DNA from: Candidatus Micrarchaeota archaeon
GTDB lineage: Archaea; Micrarchaeota; Micrarchaeia; Anstonellales; Bilamarchaeaceae
DNA length: 64,000 bases
Direction: 5' to 3'
NCBI GenBank assembly: GCA_014730115.1
Contig: WJIU01000024.1
Span: 41,316 to 105,315, forward strand
Under the pieces are notes generated by a model. It had not been told where the DNA came from. It did no database searches and saw only the letters and a list, made by a program, of their open reading frames with translations. Numbering within the stretch: position 1 is the stretch's first letter; each line of letters begins with the position of its first letter. A program made the position numbers and the translations under genes. Positions 11,801-62,679 of this stretch are shown one piece after another.

Positions 11801-11912
11801 AGAAGACAAAGATTTATCTGGGGGGAGAGGACATCGAAGAGGATGAGATGATGCCCAGGGACTTCACCGACTTTCTTGTATCATTCATCAAGGACATCGT
11901 AGGAGGGAGGAG

Positions 11913-16277: not shown

Positions 16278-16278
16278 A

Positions 16279-16641: not shown

Positions 16642-16701
16642 GTCCTTTATAAGTGTTATTATTTATATTATATAATGGTATTACACATTTATAATAATTA
16701 A

Positions 16702-36266: not shown

Positions 36267-37688
36267 ATGTCAGTGGAGATAATGGCTGGAAGAAAAAGGA
36301 GCATCTGGCCCTTTGCTGCTGCCGCAGCAGTGCTGCTGGCCCTTGCAGCATATTATGTAGTCTGGTCGTCAGGGTATTTCGCAACCGAAACCTCCCTGGA
36401 AATCTTCCCGGAAACAGAAGATGGCGGCATTGAGATAGCAATACAGGCAGAAAACAAAGACGGCAGGGGCCTGCAGGGCGCCCTTGTCCATATCTATGCC
36501 GAAGACAGGCTTGTGGACTCCCTGTACACTGACACCAACGGCCGGGCATTAACAGAGACCGGTATCCTTCCCGGCTGGTACGGCTCGGGGGTTTCCTTCA
36601 GTGCGGAATACCGGGGAGATGAAAACCACCTTCCCTCATCAGCTGCTGCAACCGCAATCGTAATGGATTCCCCCTCTCTATCCATTGGCATTGCAAACAG
36701 CACCACTGTCGGCGAAAGGCTTTCTGCAAAGGTACGCCTGGAGGGAATAGAGGGGGCTGAGGTGTTTTTCCGGGGAATGCATAACAACACTGATGAGAAC
36801 GGAACCGCGCATTTTGCCCTGGCTTTCAATTCCACCGGTATGAAGCAGGTAAACGCCGAATTCCGGGGCAACCGGTATCTCCATCCTGCCAGGGCAACTG
36901 CCTGGCTGGAGGTGCTTCCGGAGACATGCAGCGACCAGACGGTGGTGGGGGAATGCTCGGGCTCCTGCCTGTGCACCCGGGACCAGGAGCTGGAATTCAA
37001 CTGCGCCGAATGCGGCTGCCCTTCCGGGCTCCTGTGCATTGAAAACGAATGCATAACAGAGGAGCAGAGGGTGCAGAAACTGATCAAAAGGCTGCAGGAG
37101 AGCGACGTATTCGTGGAAAGCGACCGCGGCAGCGGCTCAGGGGTAATCATTGAGGCCGGGGAGAACCAGAGCATCATACTCACCAACCGCCACGTGGTTG
37201 ACCCTGATTTCAGCAGCCAGTCCGCGCCAAACATCCAGATTTTCAACTCAGACAGGGAGGTTGCAAAGCCAAAGTCCATACTCCTGGCCCCGAACGGCAT
37301 TGACCTTGCATTAATATACATTGGCAAATACCTGGGCCCGGAGGCAGAAGCCGGCTACAACCAGAGCATTGAGAGGGGGGCAGGGGTGCTTGCAATCGGT
37401 TCCCCACTTGGAATACAGGACAGTGTGACCATGGGCATTGTCTCTAATTTCTATGATGCAGAAACAGAGGAAGGCTTTGAGTACCAGGCAATCCAGGTTG
37501 ATGCAGCAGTCAATCCCGGCAACAGCGGAGGCGGACTGTTCCTGTCAAGCAACGGAAAACTGGTCGCCATTACAACTTTCAAGCTGGTCATCAGCCAGGT
37601 GGAGCTGGCCGAAGGCCTTGGCTTTGCCATCCCGCTGAGCCTGGTAGATGATTACCCTATAGGAGAATGGACAGTCATAGCTCCCTGA
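36267..37688 (+). CDS. Secreted trypsin-like (S1/HtrA-type) serine protease with N-terminal Ig-like and Cys-rich regions
   Basis: Catalytic triad residues are His in TNRHVVD, Asp in IDLALIY and Ser in GNSGGGLF. An N-terminal TM/signal, a CxC-rich stretch and a coiled linker precede the protease domain. Confidence 0.75.
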   Translation: MSVEIMAGRKRSIWPFAAAAAVLLALAAYYVVWSSGYFATETSLEIFPETEDGGIEIAIQAENKDGRGLQGALVHIYAEDRLVDSLYTDTNGRALTETGILPGWYGSGVSFSAEYRGDENHLPSSAAATAIVMDSPSLSIGIANSTTVGERLSAKVRLEGIEGAEVFFRGMHNNTDENGTAHFALAFNSTGMKQVNAEFRGNRYLHPARATAWLEVLPETCSDQTVVGECSGSCLCTRDQELEFNCAECGCPSGLLCIENECITEEQRVQKLIKRLQESDVFVESDRGSGSGVIIEAGENQSIILTNRHVVDPDFSSQSAPNIQIFNSDREVAKPKSILLAPNGIDLALIYIGKYLGPEAEAGYNQSIERGAGVLAIGSPLGIQDSVTMGIVSNFYDAETEEGFEYQAIQVDAAVNPGNSGGGLFLSSNGKLVAITTFKLVISQVELAEGLGFAIPLSLVDDYPIGEWTVIAP

Positions 37689-40353: not shown

Positions 40354-40734
40354 ATGATTATCGTGAAGGTCCTGGAAATCGGCCCCGGCCCCGCTGCAGC
40401 ACGGCTGCTGGGGGGCATCAGGGAGGAAAATGCAGTTGTCCTGAACCCGCATGCAGTGGGTTCCTGCGAGGAGCTGGAGCTGGCCAATTACCTTGCTGAA
40501 AAATCTTTTGAAAATGGCAGGAACATTGCAAATAAATTCAAGTATGAGTTCCTGCTCTGGCTTTCCGGAACAAGGGACATCAAAAATGCCATAAAGAAAA
40601 CCAAGCCGGAAAAAAACAGGCCTTTCCTGCTGGTGGCCTTTTCAGGAATGGAGGGCATTAAAGGCAGGAAACCGAATCTGAAAAAAGAGGCTGAGCCGCT
40701 GGCCCTGGAAAGGATTTCGCTTTCCAGGCTTTAG
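40354..40734 (+). CDS. cgi121: KEOPS complex subunit Cgi121
   Basis: 126 aa. EFLLWLSGTRDIKNAIKK matches the conserved Cgi121 region. Confidence 0.6.
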   Translation: MIIVKVLEIGPGPAAARLLGGIREENAVVLNPHAVGSCEELELANYLAEKSFENGRNIANKFKYEFLLWLSGTRDIKNAIKKTKPEKNRPFLLVAFSGMEGIKGRKPNLKKEAEPLALERISLSRL

Positions 40735-42284
40735 AGCTCAAGCTGCTTTGCTATCATTTCCTTGTTCACCGGAAGCTCTATCCCCAGCACCTGGTGGATG
40801 AACGCAAACATGTCAATAATTTCGGAGCGGTCCCTGGTTATCTTGTCTGCCATCTGTTTGATGGTGAGGTCCCGGCCAATCAGCTCGTAGAGCATCAGGC
40901 CCTCTTTTCCATACCTCTTGTAAACTGCATACCCGTCATCCCCGTATTTCTTGTGCACGTCTGAGCGGGACAGCGCCTTCATGATTACCATCCCGTTCTG
41001 CATCATGAATTTCAGTATATCCATTACCTCGTAAAGCGGCATGTCCAGCTCCAGGGAAATGTCAATTACATCGCTCTGGCCATCCACCTCCCTAATCACT
41101 TTGCTGCCCTTGTCTCCAAGCTTGAACATCATCTTTGCTTTCAGCTGGACTGATTTCACAATGTCAAGCGGGGCCTTCACCGGAGCGGCCAGCGGAGAGG
41201 GAACTGCCCTTGCCTCCTCCAGGGACTCCTCGCTTTCAATCATGGGGGCGAATCCGCCCCTTGCCTTTTTCTTGGCAGAGGGCGGCGGACGGCGCGGGGG
41301 AGGCGGCCTCCTTCCCCTTCTCCTGGTGGTCGGGCCACCTGCAAAAGGTGGCGGGGGAGGCGGAGGGGGTGCGCGGCCCTTCCCTTTTGGATAATCAAGC
41401 TTTATTATTCCCTGCTCGTCCATGAAGTCAAGGATTTCCACGAGCTTGGCCTCGGTAAGGCCGGTTTCGCCCATAATCTCCTCTGCGGTTCTCTGTCCGT
41501 CTATAAGCGCGTAAACCTTCAGCCCAAGGTCTCCGTATTTGTCTGATATTATCTTTTCCACCGGGCTGAGCTCAGGCCCCTCCGGCGGAGGGGGGGGCGG
41601 TTTTCTTGCAACAGGCTCCAGGGGAGGCGGCTTCTTGAAAGAAGGCGGCTTCTTTTCTTCTGGTTTTTCCTTTTCGGGGGGCGGGGCTTCCTCTTCAGGG
41701 CCTTCCACCTCCTCAAATTCAATGGGCTCAAATTCCGGCTCTTCCCCAGGTTCTTCCTCCGGCTTTTCAGGTTCTTTTTCGGGCTTTTCCTCGGGCTCCT
41801 CGAACCCTTCTACCCCTATCGGCTCTATGGGCTCGAATTCAATCTCCTCCTCCAGGGGAGGCACTTCCTCTGCCTCTTCCTCGGGAAGCTCTTCTAGTGT
41901 AGGGATTTCCCTTTCTTCCTCAGGGAATGCCTCAGGCGGAGGCGGGGCGGGCTTCTTTTCAGGAAGGCCTTCGGGCTTTTCCGGGGCTTTCTTTTCCCCG
42001 GGTTCCTTTGGAGGCTTTTCCTCCTCGGGCTTTTTGGACACCGGAGTGAGCTCAACCATGCCGGCGTCCTGCATGTAATTGATTATCTCATCAAACATCT
42101 TGGATTCTGTTCCAAGGTCCTTTTTCAGCTCGGCAGTAGTCCTTTTGCCGGTAATCGCCCTGTATATCTGAAGCCCTATTTCCCCGTATTTCTTAATCAG
42201 AAGGTTCTGGTTTTTGAATCTCTGAAGAGGGCCCTTTTCGAGTTTTTTGATTTTATAGTCTGAACCCTTTGCCATTAGCACCAC
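40731..42284 (-). CDS. Protein with four tandem ~50-aa winged-helix-like domains separated by Pro/Glu-rich linkers
   Basis: Four repeats share the pattern Y-G-x-x-G-x-x-V/I-Y-x-x-I-x-G-x-x-T-x-x-E-I...Q-G-I/M-V. They are KKYGEIGLQIYRAITGKRTTAEL..., DKYGDLGLKVYALIDGQRTAEEI..., KFMMQNGMVIM and KKYGDDGYAVYKRYGKEGLMLYELIGRDLTIKQ.... The linkers read PEEEKPPKEPGEKKAPEKPE... and PPPPPPPFAGG. Confidence 0.6.
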   Translation of the reverse strand: MVLMAKGSDYKIKKLEKGPLQRFKNQNLLIKKYGEIGLQIYRAITGKRTTAELKKDLGTESKMFDEIINYMQDAGMVELTPVSKKPEEEKPPKEPGEKKAPEKPEGLPEKKPAPPPPEAFPEEEREIPTLEELPEEEAEEVPPLEEEIEFEPIEPIGVEGFEEPEEKPEKEPEKPEEEPGEEPEFEPIEFEEVEGPEEEAPPPEKEKPEEKKPPSFKKPPPLEPVARKPPPPPPEGPELSPVEKIISDKYGDLGLKVYALIDGQRTAEEIMGETGLTEAKLVEILDFMDEQGIIKLDYPKGKGRAPPPPPPPPFAGGPTTRRRGRRPPPPRRPPPSAKKKARGGFAPMIESEESLEEARAVPSPLAAPVKAPLDIVKSVQLKAKMMFKLGDKGSKVIREVDGQSDVIDISLELDMPLYEVMDILKFMMQNGMVIMKALSRSDVHKKYGDDGYAVYKRYGKEGLMLYELIGRDLTIKQMADKITRDRSEIIDMFAFIHQVLGIELPVNKEMIAKQLEL

Positions 42285-42343
42285 ACTTAGCTAGGTAGAA
42301 TATCATCAAAATGTTTATTAAAATACGTAATTTATACTAGCGT

Positions 42344-44041
42344 ATGGAGTTCGACGAGCTACTCATCACCACAGGTGTTGATGCTCTGGTACGGCTTGTA
42401 AAGGAAAGGGAAAGAGTAGAGATAGAGGACGCTGCCGCAATCCTTAACATTCCTGTAAATACCCTTGAAGACTGGTCAAGAGTGCTGGAGGAGGAGGGCA
42501 TCCTCAGGATTGAATACCGGCTTACCCATATCTACTTGGTCTGGATCAAGCCAAGTGCAGTGGAAGTAAAGGAAGAAACAGAGTCATTCTACGAGGAAAA
42601 GAAAGACATACAGAAAGAGGTGCGGGAAATCAAGGAAAAGGTCCAGAAAGAGACCGAGGGCCTCCATGAACTCCATGAGTCATTTACCGGATTTTATGAC
42701 AAGGCATATTCAAGGATAGAGGAACTGGAAAAGACCGTTGCCCCTATTCCCGCCGCAAAAACGCTTTCCGAAGGAATGTATTCAGACTACCAGAAGGACC
42801 TGGAGAAGATGAGCGGTGAGCTTGCAGCCACAAAGAAAGGGATAACGAAAATCAGGTCCCAGATTGATGAGCTGGGAATAGAAAGGGAAACCAGCCCCAG
42901 CCAGGAAATCATTGAGCGCATGGAGAAAATGAAATCAGAAATGCAGGAGATGCAGCAAGAAATCCAGAGGCTGGAAAAAACTGCCAAAGGCAAGTATCCC
43001 AAGGATGTGAAGCTGCCTTCCACTTCTGAAATCAAAAAGAAATTTGAATCAGTGAAGAAAAACTTCCAGCAGCTGCGCTCCCGAAATGCAAAGCTGAGGG
43101 AGGGCATGCTGAGCCTTCAGGAAAGCTCCGAGATTCTGCACGATGTTGCAGAATCCATAATGGGACAGGAGGAAAAAATTGAAAACCTGAACAACGAGGT
43201 CAGGGAGCTGGCCGGTGAAACAGACAAGCTTTTCAAGAAGATGAAGGAAACGGACGAAAAGGCCAAGCGCAACGTGGAGATTGTGGAACGGCTGGGGGAC
43301 TCCGTAGACGTGGCAAAGAACATTCTGAAAAAATTCCCGAGCCAGAAGAAGGTGGTGCAGGAACTGGACCAGCTTAAGGCCCAGGAGCAGGAAGTGATGG
43401 CGCAGACAAAATCGCTTGAGAAAATCCTGGAGGCCGCCGGGGGAAAGCGGATATCCGCCAAGAAGTTTGAGGAGCTTTCCAAGAAGATGGACACCAAGTC
43501 AAAAAAGATGAGCCAGGACCTGGAAGCCCTGGAATCCGCGCTTAGGCATGAAAAATCCACATACCTCACATTCCAGAGAATCAAGGAAAAGATTGTGCCT
43601 TCGATAGAATCATACCAGAAAAAGCTTTCTGAAATGGAATCAAAGATAACCACAATCCGGCAGGAGGCTTCAAGCGAAAGAAAGAACCTGGAAAAGGATG
43701 CCAAGGAGCTTCAGCAAAAGCTGAAAGGCGGGCAGATGCAGGGCATCATGAAGGTTGCAGAGGAAATCAGGGAAAAGAAGAAAATGCTCGAAGAGATACG
43801 CTCCTCCCTCAACAGCCTTGTTTCTGCCTCGGAGAACCTGCACAAGAGGGTTACACTCCTTTCCCGGGAAGCCAGGCTGCTCCAGATAAGGGCCGGAGAG
43901 AAGACCGCCCCGCCGATTGCTCCGGAAAAGGAGGAGGAAATCAGGCACCAGCTGGAGCTGAGCAAGGAAGAGGAGGAGGAATTCCGCAGAAAGAGGGAGG
44001 AGCTCAAAAAGCTGATAAAGAGGCTCTGGGAAACCCAATAA
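42344..44041 (+). CDS. Winged-helix + long coiled-coil protein (565 aa)
   Basis: The N-terminal 70 aa resemble the wH repeat of the divergent gene (TTGVDALVRLVKERERVEIEDAAAILNIPVNTLEDWSRVLEEEGILRIEY). About 480 aa of K/E-rich heptad-repeat coiled coil follow. It is the first gene of the operon. Confidence 0.6.
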   Translation: MEFDELLITTGVDALVRLVKERERVEIEDAAAILNIPVNTLEDWSRVLEEEGILRIEYRLTHIYLVWIKPSAVEVKEETESFYEEKKDIQKEVREIKEKVQKETEGLHELHESFTGFYDKAYSRIEELEKTVAPIPAAKTLSEGMYSDYQKDLEKMSGELAATKKGITKIRSQIDELGIERETSPSQEIIERMEKMKSEMQEMQQEIQRLEKTAKGKYPKDVKLPSTSEIKKKFESVKKNFQQLRSRNAKLREGMLSLQESSEILHDVAESIMGQEEKIENLNNEVRELAGETDKLFKKMKETDEKAKRNVEIVERLGDSVDVAKNILKKFPSQKKVVQELDQLKAQEQEVMAQTKSLEKILEAAGGKRISAKKFEELSKKMDTKSKKMSQDLEALESALRHEKSTYLTFQRIKEKIVPSIESYQKKLSEMESKITTIRQEASSERKNLEKDAKELQQKLKGGQMQGIMKVAEEIREKKKMLEEIRSSLNSLVSASENLHKRVTLLSREARLLQIRAGEKTAPPIAPEKEEEIRHQLELSKEEEEEFRRKREELKKLIKRLWETQ

Positions 44042-44059
44042 TATTAATGGTGATACTGT

Positions 44060-45601
44060 ATGGCAAAAGGAAATGAAAAAGAGAAAGGCGTGAAGGAAAA
44101 GGTTCCTGCAAAGACATCCCTGCTTGCCGCTTACGCATTCAGCAGCGAAGGCCTGCCGGTCGAAGTCCGGATTTTCCGCAGGCCTGCCGATTTCGTGCCC
44201 AAATACGAGGTTACAATTCCGGGCATTGCAGAAGGAACCAAGCTGATGCTTGAAACAAAGCTGAAAGGAGAGCTGGTCACTGAAGTAAAGCTGGACATCA
44301 GCGAGATACTGGACCCCAAGAAATTCTCAGAAGTGAAATCAAAGTTCCTGGCAGCAGCCAGGAAAATCCTGGAGCGCAATTTTCCCTCGCTCCCCGACGA
44401 CAAGAAAGGCATTCTTGCCGTATACCTGCTGCAGAAGACTCTTGGGCTGGGAGAAATGGAGGCATTGCTTGCAGATGACAAGCTGGAAGAAGTCGTGGTC
44501 AACAACGCCCAGGAGCCGGTCTGGGTATATCACAAGAAATTCGGATGGTGCAAGACCAACCTTAAGCTGAAGAACGAGGGAATAGTCTATGATTACGCAT
44601 CCCTGATTGCAAGAAGGGTGGGCCGCCAGATAAATGTGCTCAACCCCACCCTTGATGCACACCTGCCCAGCGGGGACCGTGTCAACGCAACCCTTTTCCC
44701 GATTTCCGCCTTTGGAAACACCATAACCATCAGGAAATTCTCCAGAAATCCATGGACCATTACCAGGTTCATCAAGTCCAAGACAGTATCACCGGATGTT
44801 GCCGCCCTTATATGGCTCTGCATTCAGAACGAGCTTTCACTTCTGGTGAGCGGTGGAACCGGAAGCGGCAAGACATCTTTCCTCAATGCAATGGCCGCGC
44901 TAATTCCGGCCAACCAGAGAATAGTTACTATAGAAGACACCAGGGAGCTCACCCTTCCCTCATTCCTGCACTGGGTGCCCACCGTAGTAAGGGAGCCGAA
45001 CCCGGAGGGAAAGGGAGAGGTCACCATGCTGGACCTGATGATTAATGCCCTTAGGCAGAGGCCGGACCGGATTATCGTCGGTGAGATAAGAAGGCAGAGG
45101 GAGGCAGAGGTGATGTTCGAGGCCATGCACACCGGCCACAGCGTCTATGCAACCCTTCATGCCGATGATGCAGCGCAGACAATTTCCCGGCTTACCAATC
45201 CCCCGATTAATGTGCCGCATGAGATGCTTGATGCTCTCTCCGGCATTGTTGTAACGTTCCGGCACCGCAGGTTCAATATCCGGAGGGTGCTGGAGTTTGC
45301 GGAAATGACCCGAAAAGGCGAACCCAACGTATTGTACAGATGGGACGTAAAGAACGACAAGGTAAAGGGAACCGGGAAAATGTCCACCCTTGCCGATACC
45401 CTTTCCCTTTATGCCGGAATGACCCCCAAGGAGATAGACCAGGATGTAGATGAAAAAGTCAAGATACTGAACTGGATGGTCGATAAAGGCTATTACGAGG
45501 TGGACCAGGTGGGAAGGATAATCTCCAATTACTACCTGGACCCTGCGGCTGTGCTTTCCGCGGCCCAGAAGAACAAGGACTGGGATTTCAAGAAGGTGTG
45601 A
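44060..45601 (+). CDS. Type IV filament / secretion ATPase (VirB11/GspE/FlaI family)
   Basis: Walker A LVSGGTGSGKTSFLNAMAALIP, Asp/His boxes, TIEDTRELTLP, Walker B RPDRIIVGEIR. 513 aa. Confidence 0.85.
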   Translation: MAKGNEKEKGVKEKVPAKTSLLAAYAFSSEGLPVEVRIFRRPADFVPKYEVTIPGIAEGTKLMLETKLKGELVTEVKLDISEILDPKKFSEVKSKFLAAARKILERNFPSLPDDKKGILAVYLLQKTLGLGEMEALLADDKLEEVVVNNAQEPVWVYHKKFGWCKTNLKLKNEGIVYDYASLIARRVGRQINVLNPTLDAHLPSGDRVNATLFPISAFGNTITIRKFSRNPWTITRFIKSKTVSPDVAALIWLCIQNELSLLVSGGTGSGKTSFLNAMAALIPANQRIVTIEDTRELTLPSFLHWVPTVVREPNPEGKGEVTMLDLMINALRQRPDRIIVGEIRRQREAEVMFEAMHTGHSVYATLHADDAAQTISRLTNPPINVPHEMLDALSGIVVTFRHRRFNIRRVLEFAEMTRKGEPNVLYRWDVKNDKVKGTGKMSTLADTLSLYAGMTPKEIDQDVDEKVKILNWMVDKGYYEVDQVGRIISNYYLDPAAVLSAAQKNKDWDFKKV

Positions 45602-45604
45602 TAA

Positions 45605-47224
45605 ATGACTGAAGAGGCTTTTCAGGCGGCAATCGAAGAAGCAAAAAAGCTGGAAAAAAAGGCAATAGAATACGAGCCATACGAGGGAGAAGTAAGGATA
45701 GAAATAATGGTTGAAGTCGAGCCTGAAGAGTATGTGGACCTTGACTACAAGGACCTTTACAACCTTTACCAGAGAACCCAGAAGATATTAAGTGCTGCCG
45801 GCATGGGCGTACTTGCGGAAAGGCCGCCGGAGGAAGCCGCCCGGGCCACTGCGGAAAGCAGGGAAGTTGAAACCAGGCTAAAGAAGATGACCAGCGAAAG
45901 GCTGAAGGAAGCAGAAGAGATTGCCAGGGAGCCGGTGGTTGCCGAAGAAGAAGCTCCTGTGCCCCCGGTTACCCAGGAAATAGAAATTGAAAAGGAAGAG
46001 CCGCAGGAAATAGAGTTTGAGGGACCCCCTGAAAAGCCTCCGGAGAAGGAAGTGGAAATCCCGTTCAAGGCACCCTCGCCGGAAGAAGTGCCCGCGCCTG
46101 AGCCGGCTACTCCCGAAGAAGCCCCGGAAGTGCCTTCCCCCGAGGAGAAGGCTCCGGAAATTCCCGAGGCAGAAAAGCCTGCCAAGGCTCCGGCCCCGAC
46201 ACTGCCTGAGCCCGAAGAGCCCCCCGCACCGGAGGTTGAACCTTCCTTGGAAAGGGCGCCGCCCCAGCCAAAGGCAGTGCCTCCCACTCTGAGGGAAACC
46301 CCAGGCGAGGCGGCTGCGAGAAGGTATGAGCAGATTGAGCAGCAGATAAGGGACATGATGGGCGAAGAGGCCGACGAGCGCGCCCTCAAAAAGAAAATGC
46401 TTGAGCTTACCAAGCAGCTTTTCAAGGAAAAGATTACCAGCAAGAGAGAAGAAATAAAGATGCAGATAAAGGTCCTGAAAAACATGCTTGCAGTTTCAGG
46501 TGAGGGCAGAGCCAAAAAGAAGAGGGCCCCTGCCCAGACCAGGCTGGAAACCATCCTCGCATCCCAGCAGGAAGAGCTTGCCCACACCAAGGGAAGGCTT
46601 ATCGATGCCTACAACAAGCAGATAATGCAGATCAAGGAGAAATTCTACGATGACATGTCATCCATAGAGAACCCGCAAAAAAGAAAGAAGACCTATGAGA
46701 CATTCGTGTCATCAGTTACCATGCTTGTCCAGAACCTGCCGGATGCAGTGAAAAAGGAAAAGGAATACCTTTCCCAGAAACATGCCGCGGAGCTGAAAAG
46801 GGCAGAGGAATCCCTGGGGGCAAAAGACAAGGCACTGAAAAAGAGGATAAAGGAAAGGAAAGATTACATCCAGGAGAACTATGATGAGGAGTTCTCCATG
46901 GTAAAGCATATCGTCGGAAAGGAGATAGAGAACCTGATAGAAGTGGCCGGGTCGGAGACATTCCGGAAGCCTGAGGAAAAGGAGAAAAAGAAAAAAAGAA
47001 TGGCCGAGCCCACCGAAATTGTCAAGGAAATCAACGAGACCGACGAAGGCACCCTGCTCTATTTCCTGCACTCCAAAAATCCCGACTATTACAAGAAATT
47101 CGAAAGGAAAAAAATATCCAGGGCAGAGGCGGTGTTCAAGGCCAAGGAGCTGCTTGCAAAAAAGAAAGGATTAAGTGATAGCATGATAAGGAAGTATTTC
47201 AGCGGTAAGGAGGAGAGAGGATGA
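45605..47224 (+). CDS. Acidic Pro/Glu-rich + coiled-coil protein (539 aa), filament-locus component
   Basis: The N-terminal 200 aa are a PE/PA-rich low-complexity region (PEEAPEVPSPEEKAPEIPEAEKPAKAPAP). The C-terminal 300 aa are K/E-rich coiled coil. Its start overlaps the ATPase stop (ATAAATG). Confidence 0.55.
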   Translation: MTEEAFQAAIEEAKKLEKKAIEYEPYEGEVRIEIMVEVEPEEYVDLDYKDLYNLYQRTQKILSAAGMGVLAERPPEEAARATAESREVETRLKKMTSERLKEAEEIAREPVVAEEEAPVPPVTQEIEIEKEEPQEIEFEGPPEKPPEKEVEIPFKAPSPEEVPAPEPATPEEAPEVPSPEEKAPEIPEAEKPAKAPAPTLPEPEEPPAPEVEPSLERAPPQPKAVPPTLRETPGEAAARRYEQIEQQIRDMMGEEADERALKKKMLELTKQLFKEKITSKREEIKMQIKVLKNMLAVSGEGRAKKKRAPAQTRLETILASQQEELAHTKGRLIDAYNKQIMQIKEKFYDDMSSIENPQKRKKTYETFVSSVTMLVQNLPDAVKKEKEYLSQKHAAELKRAEESLGAKDKALKKRIKERKDYIQENYDEEFSMVKHIVGKEIENLIEVAGSETFRKPEEKEKKKKRMAEPTEIVKEINETDEGTLLYFLHSKNPDYYKKFERKKISRAEAVFKAKELLAKKKGLSDSMIRKYFSGKEERG

Positions 47225-48111
47225 ACGACCCCACTGAAAAACCGAAAAGAAGAACCATCCTGACCTCAATTGCAGAGATGGCAGCTTCCCGTTTCCCCGA
47301 CCTCAAGAAAAAGCTCCGCATGGCTGACATGGAGGCCAGGCCCATTGAGTTCCTGGAAAAGGTAATAGCATCATCGGCAGCAATATCCTCGGGCATGGTG
47401 CTGCTGGCCTGGGCGTATCTCTATATCATGGGAAGCCTGGAATTCGCGCTTGAAAATGACCTGCCCATGTTCGCACTTATGGTTCTGGGGCCGCTGGTTG
47501 CAATACCCTTGGTAGTGTTTGCCTATCTTATGCTTTATCCTGATGCAATGAGAATCAGGAGGGAGAAGGAGCTGGACTATGAGATTGTTTTTGCAGGGCG
47601 GCACATCGTCATTGCGCTGGAGTCGGGGATGCCCCTTTTTGATACCTTTGTAGGAGCCTCGGGATACGGCGCGGTGAGCAAGGAGTTTGCGCGCATCGTT
47701 GACAAAGTCGTCCTTGGGGTTCCGATGACCCAGGCAATAAGGGAAGTTGTGCAGTACAATCCCTCCAGGTATTTCACAAGGATGATGATGCAGGTGGCCA
47801 ATGCCCTTTCCAGCGGTGCCGACGTCGGCAATTCCCTGGAAAGCGTACTTGACCAGATATCCAAAGAGCAGATGATTGCGCTAAAGGAATACAGCCAGAA
47901 GCTGACCCCGATTGTCATGTTTTACATGGTTTTCGGAATCATCGTGCCTTCACTGGGAATAGTGCTTGCGACAGTGATTTTTTCGGCAATAAGCGGCGGC
48001 ACCTTCGGCTTTTCTTCGGCCGTGCTGGTGCTGGCATTCTTTGTAATCGGACTGGTGCAGTTCCTGTTCCTGGGATTCATTGAAAGCTCAAGGCCGAAGT
48101 ATCTTATATAG
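47221..48111 (+). CDS. TadB/GspF-like platform membrane protein (first half of a split FlaJ/TadC-type platform)
   Basis: 296 aa with an N-terminal cytoplasmic segment and then 3-4 TM helices. Overlaps the previous stop (ATGA). Confidence 0.6.
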   Translation: MNDPTEKPKRRTILTSIAEMAASRFPDLKKKLRMADMEARPIEFLEKVIASSAAISSGMVLLAWAYLYIMGSLEFALENDLPMFALMVLGPLVAIPLVVFAYLMLYPDAMRIRREKELDYEIVFAGRHIVIALESGMPLFDTFVGASGYGAVSKEFARIVDKVVLGVPMTQAIREVVQYNPSRYFTRMMMQVANALSSGADVGNSLESVLDQISKEQMIALKEYSQKLTPIVMFYMVFGIIVPSLGIVLATVIFSAISGGTFGFSSAVLVLAFFVIGLVQFLFLGFIESSRPKYLI

Positions 48112-49185
48112 GTGGATGAGATGAGGACTGACAATATATTTGAAAGTGCGGGAAGGCTGTTCTTCACCAGGAAGAGGATAAGGCTACTGGAAAAGCAGCT
48201 GAACACCGCCGGAGTCAACATGCCTGCAGACTCCTTTGCAGGCTATGTTGCATTGAACGTGATAGTAATTACGCTCTTCCTCAGCCTTCTGCTCATACTC
48301 TTCCAGCCTCTCAACGAGGCCATCACCGGCCTGGTCAGCGGCTATGTGGAGCTTCCGTTTGCGCTTGTCGCGGTTCTGCTTATCGTAGTGTCCTTTGTGT
48401 TTGTCTACCTGGCAACAATGGCAGCGATTTCCTCATATCTTCTTATGAAGACAGATGACCGGAGAAACAAGCTTGAAACCTCACTGCCTGATTTCCTCAC
48501 CCTGGTGGCCTCCAACATCAAGGCGGGGATGAGCCTGGACCAGGCAATGTGGTATTCTGCCAAGCCCGAGTTCGGGCTTCTCTCCGTGGAAGTAAGGGCA
48601 AACATAAAGAGCTCTTTCAGCGGGGAGAGCCTGGAGGATACCCTGGATACGCTGGCCATGAGGTTTGACTCCAAGGTCTTCAAGAGGACAATCCTGCTGC
48701 TCAAGCAGGCAACCGCCACGGGTGGAGAGCTTACCGACGTGCTGGAAAGGACTGCCACAGACGTCAGAAATACCATAATCATGAAAAAGGAGATTGCAGC
48801 ATCCCTGGTGCTGTACGAAATTTTCGTGCTGTTTGCGGCAATCGTGGGTACTCCGTTCCTTTTTGCAGTTGCCCTCAAGCTTATTGAGGTCTTTGAAAAG
48901 ATAGGGCCCCAGGTGGGGGCAGGGCCAAGCGCCACTGGAGGCGTGTTTACCACCGTGTCCAGCATCCAGCTTTCCGGCCCCATCATAACGTCCGCAGACT
49001 TTTACTGGTTCAGCATTCCGACAATTTTCATTACGGCCCTGATATCATCATTTATAGTCAGCGTTATCAGAACCGGCTCCAAAAGCTCGGGCATGAAGTA
49101 TTTCCCGTTTGTCCTGATGCTGGCCTATCTGGTATACTGGGTCGTGATAAATGCGGTAGAGTCATTTTTCGCTACCATCGCGTAG
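48112..49185 (+). CDS. TadC/FlaJ-like platform membrane protein (second half)
   Basis: 357 aa with a cytoplasmic helical domain between TM segments. It starts immediately after the previous stop. Confidence 0.6.
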   Translation: MDEMRTDNIFESAGRLFFTRKRIRLLEKQLNTAGVNMPADSFAGYVALNVIVITLFLSLLLILFQPLNEAITGLVSGYVELPFALVAVLLIVVSFVFVYLATMAAISSYLLMKTDDRRNKLETSLPDFLTLVASNIKAGMSLDQAMWYSAKPEFGLLSVEVRANIKSSFSGESLEDTLDTLAMRFDSKVFKRTILLLKQATATGGELTDVLERTATDVRNTIIMKKEIAASLVLYEIFVLFAAIVGTPFLFAVALKLIEVFEKIGPQVGAGPSATGGVFTTVSSIQLSGPIITSADFYWFSIPTIFITALISSFIVSVIRTGSKSSGMKYFPFVLMLAYLVYWVVINAVESFFATIA

Positions 49186-49193
49186 GGGATATT

Positions 49194-49778
49194 ATGGAAT
49201 TTATGGAATATATGAAGAAAAAAGGAGGATATAAGAAAGGACAGGCGGTGATGGAATACCTCATCACCTACGGGCTTGCGCTTTTCGTAATTCTGATAGT
49301 GCTTGCAATTCTCGTGGCGGTGGTGCTGCCATCTCTCCGGGCTCCGGAGACCTGCCAGTTCACCCAGCCGGGTTTCACATGCAACCAGGCGCCCCATGCA
49401 ATTGTGGCTGATTCGGCCAATAACCTGCATCTGCTGTTCCAGCTGGACAACGCCCAGGGAAGGGCAGTGGTCATAGAGGGGGTCACCTGCTTTAATGCAG
49501 CGACCGGAAATATCAGGAAATCGGATGTCGAAGCCAACAATGCACTTTCCAGCCCGCAGCTCATGGCTGCAGGCCAGAGCCTGACTTTCGGCAGTCCGGA
49601 ATCCGCAGTGACCGACGAGATATCCTGCGTCAATGAAGACGGAACGCAGACCGTCCTTTCCCCCGGCTCAAACTTCAGGGGAACCCTTGCAGTAACCTAC
49701 ACATTCCAGGGGGACATCCCGGGAGCTCCGGAAAGGCTGGCAGTTGCAACCGTTACCGGTGCAGTGCAGCAGGAGTAA
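49194..49778 (+). CDS. Archaeal type IV prepilin (class III signal peptide)
   Basis: N-terminus MKKKGGYKKGQAVMEYLITYGLALFVILIVLAILVAVV has a KGQ|A cleavage motif, Glu at +5 and a hydrophobic helix. Confidence 0.6.
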   Translation: MEFMEYMKKKGGYKKGQAVMEYLITYGLALFVILIVLAILVAVVLPSLRAPETCQFTQPGFTCNQAPHAIVADSANNLHLLFQLDNAQGRAVVIEGVTCFNAATGNIRKSDVEANNALSSPQLMAAGQSLTFGSPESAVTDEISCVNEDGTQTVLSPGSNFRGTLAVTYTFQGDIPGAPERLAVATVTGAVQQE

Positions 49779-49788
49779 TTCTTTTTTT

Positions 49789-50991
49789 TTAACTCCCGTA
49801 TTTTTCTGCGCGGCCGGTGATGTTCAGGATAAGGGGAAGTACGTCCTTCCCTTTTATGTGCCCCAGTCCGCCCTGGGCGCAGCTCAGCTCATCGAATTTC
49901 TTTATCTTGTCATTTCTTTCTCCTTTGTAGACAAGAATGGGAACCTCGTGCCCGGAGTGGCTTTTCATGCTGACCGGCGTAGAATGGTCTCCGGTAATCA
50001 CTAATGACGCCCCTGACTTCTCCAGGATGGGGATTACTTTGTCTATCTTTTCAAGCATCTTCTTCTTTGCATTGAAGTTCCCGTCATGGGAGGCGCTGTC
50101 GCACCCCTTGATATGCATGAACACGAAATCATAGCCTTCCAGAGCCTTGGCAGCTGCCTCGGCCTTTGCCCTGACATCGGTTTTAAGGCCTCCGGTCGCA
50201 CTGGGCACCAGGGCAACATCCATTTTCAGGTAAGCGGCGACCCCCTTGTACAGGGCCCCGCCCGCAACGCACAGGCCATGCATTTTGAAACGCTCAAAGA
50301 ATGACGGCACTTCTGCATATGCTCCGGCCCCCCTCACCATGAGGGCATTGGCCGGCAGCTTCCTGCCCTTGTTTGCGGGATTGCTGGAAAGCCAGCCCCT
50401 GGCAACTTCAGTGTACCTGTTGATGATATCGGCGGTTCTCTTTGCCTCCCAGCTGTCTTCAAGAGGGACACACTCCTGCAGAACGCCTTCCTGATGGGGG
50501 TCGGTATCGCTTACATTGCTGCTTAGGTTGGGCCCCCTCAGCACAAGCGCGCCCCGGTGCTCCACCGAATTACGGAAAATGATTTCCACGTTGCCAATTT
50601 TCATTGAAAGCCCTTTGGAAAGCTTGGAAGCAGTCTCAGTGTCAATCCTGCCGGCCCTGCGGTCTTCCACCCTGTCGTCCTTCACAGTAGCGAAGTTGGT
50701 CCTGAATGCAACATCCCCTTCCTGGAGTTCAATGCCCAGGCCCAGTGCCTCAAAGGGCCCCCTTCCACAGTAGAAAACAGCGGGGTCGTAGCCCAAAATG
50801 CTCAGATGGCCGGTGTCGCTTCCCGGGACTATATATCTCTTGATGGGGCTGAGCATCCCGTTGATTCCGTTTTTTGCAAGCCGGTCAAGATTAGGGGTTT
50901 TTGCAGCCTGAAGAGGGGTCTTGGGGGTGGGCAAATCGCCAAGTCCGTCAATGATTAGCAGGATTGCCTTTTGCATGCTTGACAGTAACAA
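49789..50991 (-). CDS. apgM: 2,3-bisphosphoglycerate-independent phosphoglycerate mutase, archaeal type
   Basis: LIIDGLGDLP, ITGDHSTP and the metal-binding His/Asp pattern are present. 400 aa. Confidence 0.85.
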   Translation of the reverse strand: MLLSSMQKAILLIIDGLGDLPTPKTPLQAAKTPNLDRLAKNGINGMLSPIKRYIVPGSDTGHLSILGYDPAVFYCGRGPFEALGLGIELQEGDVAFRTNFATVKDDRVEDRRAGRIDTETASKLSKGLSMKIGNVEIIFRNSVEHRGALVLRGPNLSSNVSDTDPHQEGVLQECVPLEDSWEAKRTADIINRYTEVARGWLSSNPANKGRKLPANALMVRGAGAYAEVPSFFERFKMHGLCVAGGALYKGVAAYLKMDVALVPSATGGLKTDVRAKAEAAAKALEGYDFVFMHIKGCDSASHDGNFNAKKKMLEKIDKVIPILEKSGASLVITGDHSTPVSMKSHSGHEVPILVYKGERNDKIKKFDELSCAQGGLGHIKGKDVLPLILNITGRAEKYGS

Positions 50992-53182: not shown

Positions 53183-54049
53183 ATGAGGGTTGTATTCGGA
53201 TTACTTGCTCTTTTCATAGCAGCACAGCTCCTTGGCATCTACACCGGCACGGTTGTCATCAATGATTTTACTGAAAACCCCTATGTCCAGGAGTTGGTTG
53301 TCACTACCGACTCCAATGAGCCCATGAATGCCGTCTTTTTCATCCTTTACATACTGGCAGGGGCGGCAATGATGATTATCCTGATACGCCTGTTCGGGGT
53401 TTATCCGATTATATTCAAGCTGCTGGAGTTTGCCTTGATTGCCACTGCAAGCTCAATTGTCTTCTATGCATTCCTCCGGCTGCTGGTGCCTTATGAAGCC
53501 AGCACCATTGCCGCAATAACAATCGGCCTTGTTTTTTCCGGAGTAAAGGTGTTTGTCCCGGGGCTCAAGAATGCTGCCGCGGTCCTGGCCACGGCCGGAG
53601 TGGGGGTTGTCTTCGGGATTTCCCTGGGGCTGATACCGCTTCTCCTGTTCCTGATATTCCTTTCCATCTATGATTATCTCTCGGTGTTTACCACCAAGCA
53701 CATGGTTGAGATGGCGGACTACATTGTCAAGAAGGACCTTGCATTCACCGTTACCGCAATAGAGCTGCCCAAGAAAAAGGGGGAAAAGGAAAAGCGCCTG
53801 GACCTGGGGACCGGGGACATCATAGCACCAATCATGCTGGAGGTTTCCCTGCTTTCCATCAGCCCGGTTGCCACTGCATTTGTTTTTGTCGGGGCTGTGG
53901 CTGCCATATTTGTTTTCCTTCAGCTGGTCTTCAGGAAGGGAAGGGTGCTTCCCGCGCTGCCCCCGATTGTGCTGGGGATGGTTTGCGGGCTTGCCCTGTG
54001 GTTTGTTTTGAACCTGCTCGGCCTTGTCCCGGCCCAATTTTCCCTATAG
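53183..54049 (+). CDS. Presenilin/signal-peptide-peptidase-like GxGD intramembrane aspartyl protease (A22 family)
   Basis: YD motif (SIYDYLSV), GxGD (LGTGDIIAP) and PAL motif (LPALPP), in the canonical order across ~9 TM helices. The start codon directly abuts the MCM stop (TAAATG). Confidence 0.65.
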   Translation: MRVVFGLLALFIAAQLLGIYTGTVVINDFTENPYVQELVVTTDSNEPMNAVFFILYILAGAAMMIILIRLFGVYPIIFKLLEFALIATASSIVFYAFLRLLVPYEASTIAAITIGLVFSGVKVFVPGLKNAAAVLATAGVGVVFGISLGLIPLLLFLIFLSIYDYLSVFTTKHMVEMADYIVKKDLAFTVTAIELPKKKGEKEKRLDLGTGDIIAPIMLEVSLLSISPVATAFVFVGAVAAIFVFLQLVFRKGRVLPALPPIVLGMVCGLALWFVLNLLGLVPAQFSL

Positions 54050-61704: not shown

Positions 61705-62211
61705 TTACTGCGACTTTTTATACATGCTCAGGTCAAATGAGGCAAGATAGGTTGAGTCGTCAGGAGAGTCCACCACGGTGGCAAGCCTTCTCAGCTTGAC
61801 CACGTCAGCCACATCAGGCTCGGTAGATGGGTCAGTCCCGATTTCGGTTTCTGTGCCGTTGGCAAGATTGGTAATTTTGAGGTATACGCCATAGGAAGAG
61901 CCGGTGACGTTCCGCAGCCAGGCAGCATCCTGCGACGCGGCACAGGAAATAACGCTGGAATCAACCCTCCGGTCGTCCCAGCCTTTTGCAAAGCCAAGCC
62001 TCTCCATGGTGGCGCAGTCTGCCGAAGGCTCCGGAGGAGTAAACATAAGATTGGAAATCCTTACCGCATCCCTGGAAAGCTGGTCATTCTGGTAGTCCAG
62101 GAACGACCGGACGCTGTGCCAGTAAGAAAGCAGGGCTACCAGCGCCAGCACGAAAATGACTGAAGCGATAATCGCATCAAAGCTGAAATACTGTCCTCTC
62201 ATATCAAACAC
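61705..62211 (-). CDS. Type IV pilin-like protein (class III signal peptide)
   Basis: MFDMRGQYFSFDAIIASVIFVLALVALL has an RGQ|Y cleavage context and a hydrophobic helix. Confidence 0.55.
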   Translation of the reverse strand: MFDMRGQYFSFDAIIASVIFVLALVALLSYWHSVRSFLDYQNDQLSRDAVRISNLMFTPPEPSADCATMERLGFAKGWDDRRVDSSVISCAASQDAAWLRNVTGSSYGVYLKITNLANGTETEIGTDPSTEPDVADVVKLRRLATVVDSPDDSTYLASFDLSMYKKSQ

Positions 62212-62679
62212 CTAAGGCTGCTGCGTAATAGTAAGATTCTCACCATCGTTATTTAACATTAACATATTGGAGCATGAGGTACTGTTAAGCACATCACCGC
62301 TGATGCACCCCCCCTGAATCTCATACTTGTATGCCGGAACCACGTATGAATAGCTGAAGTCTCCATAGCTGCCTTCCCATTCCAGAACCATGAAGCCGTC
62401 AGAAAGGTTGGTGAAATAAACCTGGTAGGGAAGGCCGAATATCGTCCGGGGGAAAGTATAGTTGTAGGAGAAGCCAGTCCCCCCCTTTACCGAAAGGGTC
62501 ATGGCATTGGCAAAGGACTCTCCAGTTTCCTTTGCCACAATATTCTGCTGAAGGGGGATTTCGGTGGAAAGCAGCTGATTGACCACTACAAATGCAGCTA
62601 TTGTTATGAACATGAATACTGCAGTGTAAAGAAGGAATTCCGTGGCCACTTGACCTCTCTTATGAGGAATAGGGGTCAA
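62212..62679 (-). CDS. Type IV pilin-like protein (class III signal peptide)
   Basis: The N-terminus reads HKRGQVATEFLLYTAVFMFITIAAFVV. Confidence 0.55.
   Translation of the reverse strand: MTPIPHKRGQVATEFLLYTAVFMFITIAAFVVVNQLLSTEIPLQQNIVAKETGESFANAMTLSVKGGTGFSYNYTFPRTIFGLPYQVYFTNLSDGFMVLEWEGSYGDFSYSYVVPAYKYEIQGGCISGDVLNSTSCSNMLMLNNDGENLTITQQP

Follow-up and report, generated by a model that had tools for sequence, protein, structure and literature searches.

The bacterial Tad/Flp pilus system comprises TadA/CpaF, TadB, TadC and Flp. Euryarchaeal Epd pili (Methanococcus maripaludis EpdJ/K/L) have the same ATPase clade, a split platform and the Flp-type pilin motif. To our knowledge, subunits that combine a winged helix with a coiled coil, or that resemble the protein called PECC2 below, lie outside both the Epd and Tad gene sets. 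ArlX (crenarchaeal archaellum ring), GspL/PilM-PilN, PodJ and FimV are non-enzymatic, membrane-associated helical or coiled-coil proteins that are encoded with the ATPase or recruited to it, and they are proposed to position or stabilize the motor; we know of no winged helix in any of them.

One Micrarchaeota type IV pilus (T4P) system has been placed in the Methanococci/Thermococci group (Golyshina et al. 2017, PMC5498576). Coiled-coil proteins (CCPs) in CpaF/TadC loci of DPANN archaea have been detected by proteomics (Hamm et al. 2024, Nat Commun, PMC11291902). They were read as sigma-1- or nucleoporin-like, and a winged helix is mentioned 0 times in that paper. Makarova, Koonin and Albers (2016, PMC4858521) reported the coiled-coil protein arCOG07564 in haloarchaeal subclade 4F T4P loci, and according to them nanoarchaea have the 4F ATPase clade too. 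An earlier note on this DNA called the system undescribed, which is too strong because these two studies reported coiled-coil proteins in T4P loci of DPANN archaea and haloarchaea.

The locus lies among housekeeping genes (MetRS, S8e, Cgi121, iPGM and MCM) in a 64-kb window, the whole stretch of DNA that was analyzed. All seven ORFs (7/7) described earlier were confirmed at their coordinates (Table 1). Six of them form an operon (42344-49778, +) in the order CC1, ATPase, PECC2, TadB-like, TadC-like, class III prepilin, and the gene for wH4 is divergent from it. The junctions, in operon order, are 18, 3, -4 (an ATGA overlap), 0 and 8 nt, the tight packing noted previously. PECC2 is thus flanked by a 3-nt gap on the ATPase side and by the ATGA overlap on the TadB side, through which it is predicted to be translationally coupled to TadB.

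Table 1. Coordinates and assignments of the features of the locus.
Feature	Coordinates	Strand	Length	Assignment and basis
wH4	40731..42284	-	514-517 aa	Four winged-helix repeats; NCBI start at 42275
Promoter/operator block	42308..42341	+		AAAATGTTTATTAAAATACGTAATTTATACTAGC; conserved across loci
CC1	42344..44041	+	565 aa	Winged helix and coiled coil; AF2, Foldseek, homolog search
ATPase	44060..45601	+	513 aa	FlaI/TadA(CpaF)/GspE2-type secretion ATPase; Pfam T2SSE E=3e-40
PECC2	45605..47224	+	539 aa	N-terminal region, Pro/Glu-rich linker, helical C-terminal domain
TadB-like	47221..48111	+	296 aa	Platform half; one T2SSF domain (Pfam 4.5e-17), TM segments
TadC-like	48112..49185	+	357 aa	Platform half; one T2SSF domain (Pfam 2.8e-13), TM segments
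Prepilin	49194..49778	+	194 aa	Flp-like, class III; signal-peptide scan
T9 run	49782..49790	+		Directly 3' of the pilin stop codon; read from sequence

The cluster is a real and strongly conserved set of type IV pilus genes in a MAG of Candidatus Micrarchaeota (DPANN), and its identification as a type IV filament locus stands. It shares with the Tad/Flp system an ATPase of the FlaI/TadA clade, a platform made of two single-T2SSF proteins, and a pilin with the Flp-type G/XXXXEY motif. The ATPase has a Walker A motif (GGTGSGKT at residue 265), and its nearest solved structures in the PDB are A. fulgidus GspE2 (2OAP, 5.9e-67), FlaI (1.6e-58) and CpaF (1.4e-48). Its identity is 75-87% in most Micrarchaeota loci, and the most divergent loci drop to about 47-65%. 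The TadB-like protein aligns to UpsF positions 55-218 (the N-terminal half), and the TadC-like protein to positions 240-482 (the C-terminal half). The class III signal peptide of the prepilin (KKG/QAVMEYLITYG) precedes a 20-residue hydrophobic stretch (17-36); the predicted cleavage site, KKG/QAVMEY, agrees with the G/XXXXEY motif in having Glu at +5. Orthologs keep this N-terminus almost unchanged ([KR][GS]QA[AV]ME[YF]L[IM]TYG), and the pattern is common to the Micrarchaeota, the Woesearchaeota-type loci and an Aenigmatarchaeota locus (L072). Unlike its Epd and Tad counterparts, the pilin is long and has a globular C-terminal domain, with conserved Cys residues. The locus differs further from Tad in that homologs of TadZ, RcpA, TadD and TadE-G are absent here and the NCBIfam scores of the ATPase (FlaI, 282 bits; TadA equivalog, 200 bits) are each under the respective cutoff. 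No prepilin peptidase was found within the window.

The AF2 monomer model of CC1, whose global confidence is low (pTM 0.29), has a winged helix at residues 1-67 followed by nine long helices, about 480 aa of helices or coiled coil. Foldseek matches the N-terminus to MarR/ArsR-type winged helices, in agreement with the winged helix proposed earlier. The accompanying description of two mostly coiled-coil proteins does not fit PECC2, although PECC2 is helical. Its N-terminal region, some 65 aa with short helices, is conserved; next comes a Pro/Glu-rich linker (about 115 residues, about 111-225) that is disordered, and then an all-helical bundle domain (230-539) that is modeled confidently. The bundle is of a generic type, and structure matches gave no functional clue. 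No TM segment, signal peptide or Walker A motif was found in CC1, PECC2 or wH4, and searches of Pfam, NCBIfam and the PDB returned nothing past generic coiled-coil and winged-helix signals. The extra proteins are conserved and co-operonic, in support of the earlier reading of them as non-canonical partners.

The winged helix of CC1 is acidic, with a net charge of -4 to -8 in 32/32 members. Its recognition helix is TLEDWSRVLEEEG, and Glu, Asp and Trp stand at positions that normally contact DNA. These features make DNA binding by the domain unlikely, judging from sequence, and they speak against the DNA- or polymer-binding scaffold suggested previously. The C-terminus of CC1 is a conserved, strongly amphipathic helix (EFRRKREELKKLIKRLWE), and the C-terminal 11-mer has the highest hydrophobic moment of the whole protein in all 32 members. 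The feature is weaker in Woesearchaeota-type relatives, 24/53 of which place it in the top 5%. It could be a protein-binding peptide instead of a membrane tether.

Hamm et al. (2024, PMC11291902) proposed that the DPANN CCPs are attachment fibers, which resemble sigma-1 structurally and were detected by proteomics. By extension, the coiled-coil proteins of this locus would be reovirus sigma-1-like fibers, displayed or secreted by a pilus-like machine for host contact. A CC1 profile does give weak sigma-1 and tail-fiber matches in the PDB, as any coiled coil would. Export is nevertheless very improbable: neither CC1 nor PECC2 has a signal peptide, a class III leader or a TM segment, and the N-terminal winged helix of CC1 is typically a cytoplasmic domain. 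In TM-anchored relatives of CC1 the winged helix is on the side of the basic, cytoplasmic-type linkers. CC1 and PECC2 are also very acidic, Lys-rich and Cys-poor, in contrast to the pilin of the operon.

Synteny was examined in 69 GTDB species-level Micrarchaeota genomes. More than 120 full-length CC1 homologs (40-67% identity) are present in the Micrarchaeota. The ATPase directly follows CC1 in 53/65 Micrarchaeota loci, PECC2 follows in 44/64, and wH4 is upstream of CC1 and divergent in 51/59. A profile of the CC1 winged helix retrieves 1598 clusters (50% identity) with winged-helix plus coiled-coil architectures of 229-873 aa, many with a C-terminal KR-x-EL-x-x-LI-x-x-MW motif. Across the family the coiled coil between the acidic winged helix and the C-terminal amphipathic helix differs in length. 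A distant subgroup comprises 80 metagenome loci of Candidatus Nanoarchaeia/Woesearchaeota. Counting only contigs with room, the ATPase is immediately downstream in 46/46 of these and TadB is present in 27/31; their gene neighborhoods are unrelated, and wH4 is absent. An Aenigmatarchaeota variant with two winged helices and two TM segments is located upstream of the ATPase cassette, and another relative, P0484, has one TM helix and a winged helix. Given the ATPase adjacency in the Micrarchaeota and in all 46 Woesearchaeota/Nanoarchaeia-type loci, the CC1 family is a DPANN-wide companion of the pilus ATPase, and gene neighborhoods strongly support the earlier linkage where CC1 is concerned.

The DPANN CCP loci (PMC11291902) have in common with this locus a CpaF/FlaI-like ATPase, a TadC-type platform, pilins and one or two uncharacterized coiled-coil proteins, and the Woesearchaeota/Nanoarchaeia, lineages in that study, here have the CC1 family adjoining the ATPase. 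The published loci are from cluster 2 DPANN and Undinarchaeota, not Micrarchaeota, and the comparison of CC1 with the published CCPs (NAR1_03220, NAR1_01690) is by description only. CC1 is likewise likened by description only to arCOG07564, an intracellular coiled coil tied specifically to one T4P ATPase clade (PMC4858521). The one haloarchaeal plasmid locus inspected differs in its 989-aa ATPase and fused 679-aa platform, and has no upstream winged-helix plus coiled-coil gene.

The best explanation of the locus is a vertically inherited, housekeeping-like pilus machine with lineage-specific cytoplasmic subunits. We moderately favor its reading as a Micrarchaeota Tad/Epd-type machine whose scaffold subunits are cytoplasmic and membrane-tethered. 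The CC1 family probably anchors or organizes the motor. CC1 would oligomerize through its coiled coil, and its C-terminal amphipathic helix would fasten it to the membrane or the platform, a tethering role that true TM helices would take over in the Aenigmatarchaeota and P0484 variants. The acidic winged helix may serve as a docking module that binds the ATPase hexamer through protein-protein contacts, and CC1 could thus anchor, position or gate the motor. PECC2 probably bridges motor and platform by its flexible acidic spacer. The likeness of CC1 to ArlX, GspL/PilM-N and PodJ would be one of functional analogy only; Pfam, NCBIfam, PDB and structure searches detected no sequence or fold relationship of CC1 or PECC2 to cytoplasmic motor scaffolds, and CC1 differs from these proteins and FimV in having a winged helix and no TM helix. 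These episymbionts would most likely use the pilus to attach to surfaces or hosts. A cultured micrarchaeon carries thin pili-like filaments (PMC11329633).

The wH4 repeats are at about 14-84, 237-300, 368-440 and 441-517, and the linkers are Pro/Glu-rich with poly-Pro. Alignment with hhalign bears out the four-repeat structure proposed earlier (r1-r2 98.6%, r1-r3 96.9%, r2-r3 96.6%, r2-r4 84%). The winged helix of CC1, thought to resemble these repeats, reaches 85% with repeat 2 only and has no HMM-level match, which suggests generic fold similarity only. The Pro/Glu-rich spacers said to be shared by wH4 and PECC2 are present in both, but they are low-complexity and vary in length between orthologs. 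Among wH4 orthologs the winged-helix domains are nearly invariant and the linkers variable. wH4 has 332 homologs, and the named ones among the best 120 of the 332 are all from Micrarchaeota. Homologs of both PECC2 and wH4 were found in Micrarchaeota only, and the two appear to be Micrarchaeota-specific additions, also relative to the loci in PMC11291902. wH4, listed earlier among the partners, is not a constant one: it is missing from the Woesearchaeota/Nanoarchaeia and Aenigmatarchaeota cassettes inspected, and it remains with Cgi121/S8e where the pilus operon has moved. That wH4 belongs to the pilus system is possible, and we lean somewhat against it; its role may be that of a multivalent adaptor or of a regulator.

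CC1 is apart from the ATPase in about 12/65 Micrarchaeota loci, and in L034, L045, L047 and L064 it is still paired with wH4 with no ATPase within 10 kb. Such pairs could point to CC1 and wH4 as a cytoskeletal or chromosome-organizing module of their own, SMC/Rad50-like or with kleisin/ScpB logic, linked to the pilus genes by synteny alone. The housekeeping neighbors fit this, as do wH4 winged-helix domains as conserved as the core genes, source annotations of CC1-family members as 'chromosome segregation ATPase' or 'SbcCD', and weak NCBIfam coiled-coil matches to ASRP, SMC and Rad50. However, the matches to SMC and Rad50 score 20-40 bits where the cutoffs are 300-1000, and neither CC1 nor wH4 has a Walker A motif or ATPase head. 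The acidic winged helix and the existence of TM-anchored variants also argue against such a module, as do the 46/46 Woesearchaeota/Nanoarchaeia-type loci that put the family before the ATPase in unrelated neighborhoods lacking wH4. In the genome with L003 and L073, CC1 has relocated along with the ATPase rather than with wH4. We therefore regard a chromosome-organizing module as unlikely.

The divergent intergenic region between wH4 and CC1 is 59-68 nt. A TATA-like TTTATTAA is about 27-34 nt upstream of the CC1 ATG, a spacing that implies, on sequence grounds, a leaderless or near-leaderless operon mRNA. It occurs at -45 to -20 in 39/41 Micrarchaeota loci, while the proteins diverge to 35-60% identity. 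Within the 64-kb window the block AAAATGTTTATTAAAATACGTAATTTATACTAGC has a single occurrence, even with 3 mismatches tolerated.

This unusually strong conservation of the promoter/operator block would suit a TrmB/MarR-like regulator of the pilus operon in CC1, with wH4 as a second DNA-binding regulator at the shared block. CC1 is the first gene of the operon, and its winged-helix fold is nearest MarR/ArsR/TFE-type DNA binders; TrmB and HTH_47 are matched by 34/34 wH4 family members, and the family also matches HTH_5/ArsR and TFIIE-alpha winged-helix models. Makarova and colleagues (2016) are said to have found transcription regulators frequent among T4P-associated genes. We still judge regulation quite unlikely as the role of this pair, given the charge of the CC1 winged helix and the residues at its usual DNA-contact positions. 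From its sequence, wH4 has hydrophobic or acidic recognition helices, and about 480 conserved coiled-coil residues, an amphipathic C-terminal helix and TM anchors would be superfluous in a regulator.

At the other end of the operon, the T9 run is likely an archaeal terminator, common to the operon and the convergent phosphoglycerate mutase gene, because oligo-T is a known termination signal of archaeal RNA polymerase.

The type IV filament locus of the window is biologically real and strongly conserved. All the open reading frames listed by an earlier note were found in the sequence. Six of them lie on the plus strand and encode CC1 (a winged-helix and coiled-coil protein), a FlaI/TadA-type ATPase, PECC2 (a Pro/Glu-rich helical protein), TadB-like and TadC-like platform halves, and a prepilin. 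The junctions between them are, in order, 18 nt, 3 nt (TGATAAATG), a 4-nt ATGA overlap, 0 nt and 8 nt, and a run of nine T residues (49782-49790) is directly 3' of the operon's last stop codon. The gene for wH4, a protein with four winged helices, is transcribed divergently from this operon. The flanking genes have housekeeping functions: MetRS, ribosomal protein S8e and Cgi121 are upstream, and phosphoglycerate mutase, MCM and a presenilin-type protease are downstream. No paralogues of the locus genes were found elsewhere in the 64-kb window.

Coordinates in the window of the genes of the filament locus and of other genes discussed in the text.
Gene	Position	Strand	Product or remark
Ig-like/trypsin-like protein	36267-37688	+	473 aa
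wH4	40731-42284	-	517 aa; NCBI call is 514 aa, start 42275
CC1	42344-44041	+	565 aa
ATPase	44060-45601	+	513 aa
PECC2	45605-47224	+	539 aa
TadB-like platform half	47221-48111	+	296 aa
TadC-like platform half	48112-49185	+	357 aa
Prepilin	49194-49778	+	194 aa
Presenilin/SPP-family protease	53183-54049	+	
PrsW-family membrane protein	57808-59403	-	531 aa
Prepilin-like gene	61705-62211	-	leader MRGQYFSFDAII...
Prepilin-like gene	62212-62679	-	leader KRGQVATEFLLY...
Prepilin-like gene	62660-63088	-	leader MKGQSSLELLVT...
Gene upstream of prepilin-like genes	63076-63984	-	302 aa

At its core the locus encodes an ordinary archaeal pilus machine of Tad/Epd-like type. The ATPase, split platform and class III prepilin claimed previously are supported by Pfam, NCBIfam, PDB and signal-peptide scans. 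The ATPase matches Pfam T2SSE (3e-40; 138 bits, cutoff 24.9), has the Walker A motif GGTGSGKT at residue 265, and has A. fulgidus GspE2 (2OAP), FlaI and CpaF as its nearest PDB relatives. The TadB-like and TadC-like proteins have one T2SSF domain each (62.6 and 50.3 bits, cutoff 25.2, Pfam) and predicted transmembrane segments. Each corresponds to one half of UpsF, so the platform is divided in the manner of TadB/TadC. The prepilin has a class III leader, MEFMEYMKKKGGYKKG followed by QAVMEYLITYGLALFVILIVLAILVAVVL, with predicted cleavage between KKG and QAVMEY, and then a 20-residue hydrophobic helix. With Glu at +5, this leader agrees with the G/XXXXEY motif of Flp type, and the N-terminus [KR][GS]QA[AV]ME[YF]L[IM]TYG is near-invariant in all 16 orthologues inspected, which come from very different genomes. 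No GxGDxK motif of an A24 prepilin peptidase (FlaK/PibD type) is present in any plausible open reading frame of the window, and the peptidase may be encoded elsewhere in the genome.

The locus is not an archaellum. The ATPase reaches 282 bits against a cutoff of 550 for the FlaI equivalog of NCBIfam, no ArlH (KaiC-like), ArlF, ArlG or archaellin was matched at the locus in Pfam or NCBIfam, and the archaellum has a single ArlJ, whereas the platform here is split. Bacterial Tad/Flp systems share the split platform and the G/XXXXEY pilin motif with the locus, but the ATPase scores below the cutoff for TadA (TIGR03819; 200 against 373 bits), and TadZ/CpaE, the RcpA secretin, TadD and TadE/F/G were not found at the locus in Pfam or NCBIfam. 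The absence of these components is expected because the organism is an archaeon without an outer membrane.

At 100% identity, CC1 corresponds to GF318_02930, wH4 to GF318_02925 and PECC2 to GF318_02940 in a Candidatus Micrarchaeota MAG. Each of the three has well over 100 full-length homologues, and all the named homologues among the 120 best listed per protein are from Micrarchaeota. A scan of GTDB species representatives gave 69 loci, and in about 40 of these tblastn recovered the order S8e(-), Cgi121(+), wH4(-), then CC1, ATPase, PECC2, TadB, TadC and pilin (+), then iPGM(-). Identities in most Micrarchaeota loci are 75-87% for the ATPase, 60-78% for TadB/C, 35-63% for CC1 and 30-60% for PECC2. 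Among the Micrarchaeota loci with enough flanking sequence, the ATPase gene follows CC1 in 53 of 65, PECC2 is next in 44 of 64, and wH4 is divergent and upstream in 51 of 59. Divergent Micrarchaeota have the same gene plan with shorter CC1- and PECC2-like genes, and the N-terminal motif of PECC2 is recognisable in some of their loci (L067, L068).

Members of the CC1 family are found outside Micrarchaeota as well. Searching with a profile of the CC1 winged helix gave 1598 clusters at E ≤ 1e-3 and 401 at ≤ 1e-10 among 1.84 billion representatives, and the named members are from Micrarchaeota, Woesearchaeota and Candidatus Nanoarchaeia. Sampled members are 229-873 aa long and combine a winged helix with a coiled coil. 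The family, as delineated here, is defined by the N-terminal winged-helix motif TTGVD...IEDWARVLEE, a coiled coil, a C-terminal helix of KR-EL-LI-MW type and a gene position immediately upstream of the ATPase/TadB/TadC cassette. CC1 has all of these features, and its C-terminal helix of the form KR-x-EL-x-x-LI-x-x-MW is common to many of the sampled members. A metagenome scan with a 5-sequence winged-helix alignment yielded 80 loci of a distant 380-aa subgroup of Woesearchaeota/Nanoarchaeia type. The next gene encodes a FlaI-like ATPase on the same strand in all 46 of the loci that have at least 2.2 kb of downstream sequence, and these ATPases are about 50% identical to that of the window. TadB is next in 27 of 31 loci, followed by TadC and usually a pilin; neither PECC2 nor wH4 was found in these distant-subgroup loci. 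Thus, both in Micrarchaeota and in DPANN of Woesearchaeota/Nanoarchaeia type, a single ATPase clade has the CC1 family as its near-obligate genomic companion. Because the linkage recurs in unrelated neighbourhoods, which is our strongest evidence, the CC1-type protein appears to be a functional partner of the ATPase.

Three modules make up the proteins of the family: the winged helix is acidic, the coiled coil differs between members, and the C-terminus is either amphipathic or transmembrane. The N-terminal winged helix that had been proposed for CC1 is present in the AF2 model at residues 1-67 (H-E-H-H-E-E) and is followed by nine long helices. Foldseek agrees, aligning the N-terminus with MarR/ArsR/TFE-type winged helices of ScoC, AntR, AspA and TFE-alpha at a probability of 1.0 over 60-77 columns. 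Outside the winged helix, profile searches with CC1 returned generic coiled-coil matches only, and the NCBIfam scores are low (ASRP, 38 against 300 bits; SMC, 30 against 567; Rad50, 27 against 700). With these sub-threshold matches, which are confined to coiled-coil regions, and no Walker A motif, an SMC/Rad50/SbcC identity of CC1 was rejected. Sequence scans of CC1, PECC2 and wH4 detected no transmembrane segment, signal peptide or Walker A motif.

In 32 of 32 family members no part of the protein exceeds the C-terminal 11-mer, ELKKLIKRLWE in CC1, in helical hydrophobic moment, and this 11-mer resembles the membrane-targeting helices of MinD and FtsA. Two relatives have true transmembrane helices in place of this C-terminal helix, which fits a membrane-proximal role. 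One is P0484, a family member with a transmembrane helix N-terminal to the winged helix, and the other occupies the CC1 position in a single Aenigmatarchaeota locus and has two winged helices and two transmembrane segments.

The suggestion that the system includes a DNA-binding scaffold was not borne out for CC1. TrmB, MarR and ArsR regulators share the winged-helix fold with CC1 and wH4, but the basic or polar DNA-contact helix and wing of such regulators are not apparent in the CC1 sequence. The CC1 winged helix is acidic: its net charge lies between -4 and -8 in 32 of 32 family members. The recognition helix reads N-T-L-E-D-W-S-R-V-L-E-E-E, which places Glu, Asp or Trp at the positions that contact DNA in MarR/TrmB-type proteins. 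The acidity and these residues make protein-protein docking the more likely function, as judged from sequence, over DNA binding.

The four winged-helix repeats claimed for wH4 are mutually homologous by hhalign. Repeats 1-3 score 97-99% among themselves and repeat 4 scores 60-84% against repeats 1 and 2, with no signal against repeat 3. All 34 family members match TrmB, HTH_47 or HTH_5, mostly below the gathering score. The winged-helix domains are near-invariant among orthologues and are separated by Pro/Glu-rich and poly-Pro linkers. The supposed likeness between the CC1 winged helix and these repeats is no more than that of a generic fold, with an hhalign value of 85% for repeat 2 alone, over 31 columns. 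Membership of the repeats in the CC1 winged-helix family was rejected, as no wH4 protein reached 7 bits with the HMM of the CC1 winged helix. The Pro/Glu-rich spacers of wH4 and PECC2 are alike in composition, as the earlier note had stated, but they are not evidence of common descent because the spacer varies in length or is missing in orthologues. An architecture parallel to that of wH4 is seen in P0391 (657 aa, on an ENA contig of 2.9 kb), which has five tandem winged helices with Lys/Glu/Pro-rich linkers; these are of the CC1-type family.

In the gene-neighbourhood comparison, wH4 stands divergently upstream of CC1 and is connected with the pilus genes only indirectly. In one genome the operon from CC1 to the pilin has been relocated without wH4 (L003), and wH4 is still beside Cgi121 and S8e (L073). 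Conversely, four loci (L034, on a complete chromosome, L045, L047 and L064) keep the wH4-CC1 pair with no ATPase within 10 kb. CC1 is therefore linked to both neighbours. That wH4 belongs to the pilus system is conceivable, and we regard it as somewhat doubtful. At L034 (OY970229), the place of the ATPase after CC1 is taken by a gene (11823-17183) for a 1786-aa surface protein of NosD/right-handed beta-helix type, a candidate adhesin in the operon slot.

About 35 nt 5' of the CC1 start (42308-42341) are near-invariant across Micrarchaeota in which the proteins are 35-60% identical. In 39 of 41 Micrarchaeota loci the sequence TTTATTAA stands at the distance expected of a TATA box, and the block occurs once in the window even when three mismatches are permitted. 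The spacing between the TATA box and the start implies that the operon mRNA is leaderless or nearly so. Conservation well past the TATA box suggests an operator, and wH4 may have a regulatory role.

Type IV pili have been listed for Micrarchaeota genomes (PMC5498576; PMC8561730), and split TadB/TadC with 'dark-matter' pilins has been noted in DPANN (PMC6393860). The same paper places N. equitans NEQ484 in cluster cls.004340, labelled 'alpha-helical, housekeeping context'. Makarova et al. (2016) associated subclade 4F loci of haloarchaea with the coiled-coil arCOG07564, and the ATPase clade of these loci is also present in nanoarchaea (PMC4858521). One locus was inspected in a search for a haloarchaeal counterpart (arCOG07564 context, plasmid tblastn), and its architecture is different. 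In cluster 2 DPANN and Undinarchaeota, Hamm et al. (2024) reported two conserved CpaF/TadC loci that include coiled-coil proteins (CCPs); the CCPs were seen by proteomics and likened to sigma-1 and nucleoporins (PMC11291902). Micrarchaeota are not listed for these loci and a winged helix is not mentioned (PMC11291902). The CC1 family probably overlaps these CCPs. Cryo-ET of a cultured micrarchaeon revealed thin pili-like filaments and unexplained cytoplasmic assemblies (PMC11329633), and the paper on the YN1 attachment organelle is silent on pili, coiled coils and an ATPase. The claim of an undescribed system goes too far: the accessory set is uncharacterised, but it was partly anticipated by the published CCP and arCOG07564 loci. 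New here are the extension to Micrarchaeota, the three-module CC1 family and its near-obligate linkage with the ATPase across DPANN, PECC2 and wH4 as proteins specific to Micrarchaeota, the evidence that argues against DNA binding, and the conserved promoter.

We lean towards a model in which the accessory proteins form a scaffold. CC1 would be a peripheral-membrane, oligomeric coiled-coil protein that docks the ATPase, and PECC2, with its flexible acidic spacer and its apparent translational coupling between ATPase and TadB, would be a bridging subunit specific to Micrarchaeota. The results suggest that archaeal pili, from which no such component was known, have a counterpart of the alignment and anchoring subcomplexes of bacteria. 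Type IV pilus loci are the leading genetic candidates for the means by which DPANN attach to their hosts and exploit them, and we know of no such DPANN locus that has been dissected so far; the results give testable targets in the few cultured micrarchaea, among them M. variisymbioticus ARM-1, Ca. Micrarchaeum harzensis and Ca. Mancarchaeum acidiphilum. Under a more ambitious reading, which we consider improbable, CC1, PECC2 and wH4 would assemble into a large super-structure in the cytoplasm, shaped as a plate, cone or cage under the membrane, that organises several pilus motors, with multivalent wH4 cross-linking CC1 units through four winged helices on long flexible linkers. Such a structure might match the stacks of filaments near the membrane, so far unexplained, or the >100-nm protein cages/'tubular organelle', which cryo-ET has revealed in Micrarchaeota/ARMAN cells (PMC11329633). 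If so, the pilus machine of DPANN would belong to an organelle dedicated to host contact and would not be a simple adhesive pilus.

Other genes of the window and of related loci were noted in passing. Just 5' of MetRS is a gene for a protein with bacterial Ig-like and trypsin-like serine protease domains, possibly a secreted or surface protease. Immediately after MCM is a presenilin/signal-peptide-peptidase (SPP) family GxGD aspartyl protease (PF06550), which is not an A24 prepilin peptidase though it is of the same mechanistic class; the MCM-SPP adjacency is also seen in the Micrarchaeota genome of L073. At L001 (JBDRCX010000006, 16584 onward) MCM carries an intein with a LAGLIDADG endonuclease, giving a 1185-aa product compared with the 679-aa MCM of the window. 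A polytopic membrane protein has at its C-terminus an intramembrane metalloprotease domain of the PrsW family (PF13367, 1.3e-32), and its long N-terminal extension looks extracellular. Near the end of the window are three small genes with class III prepilin-like leaders, whose ends overlap or abut, and upstream of them is a gene for a 302-aa protein; none of the four has a Pfam match. The three small genes probably encode minor pilins served by the ATPase and TadBC proteins of the locus (44060-49185).
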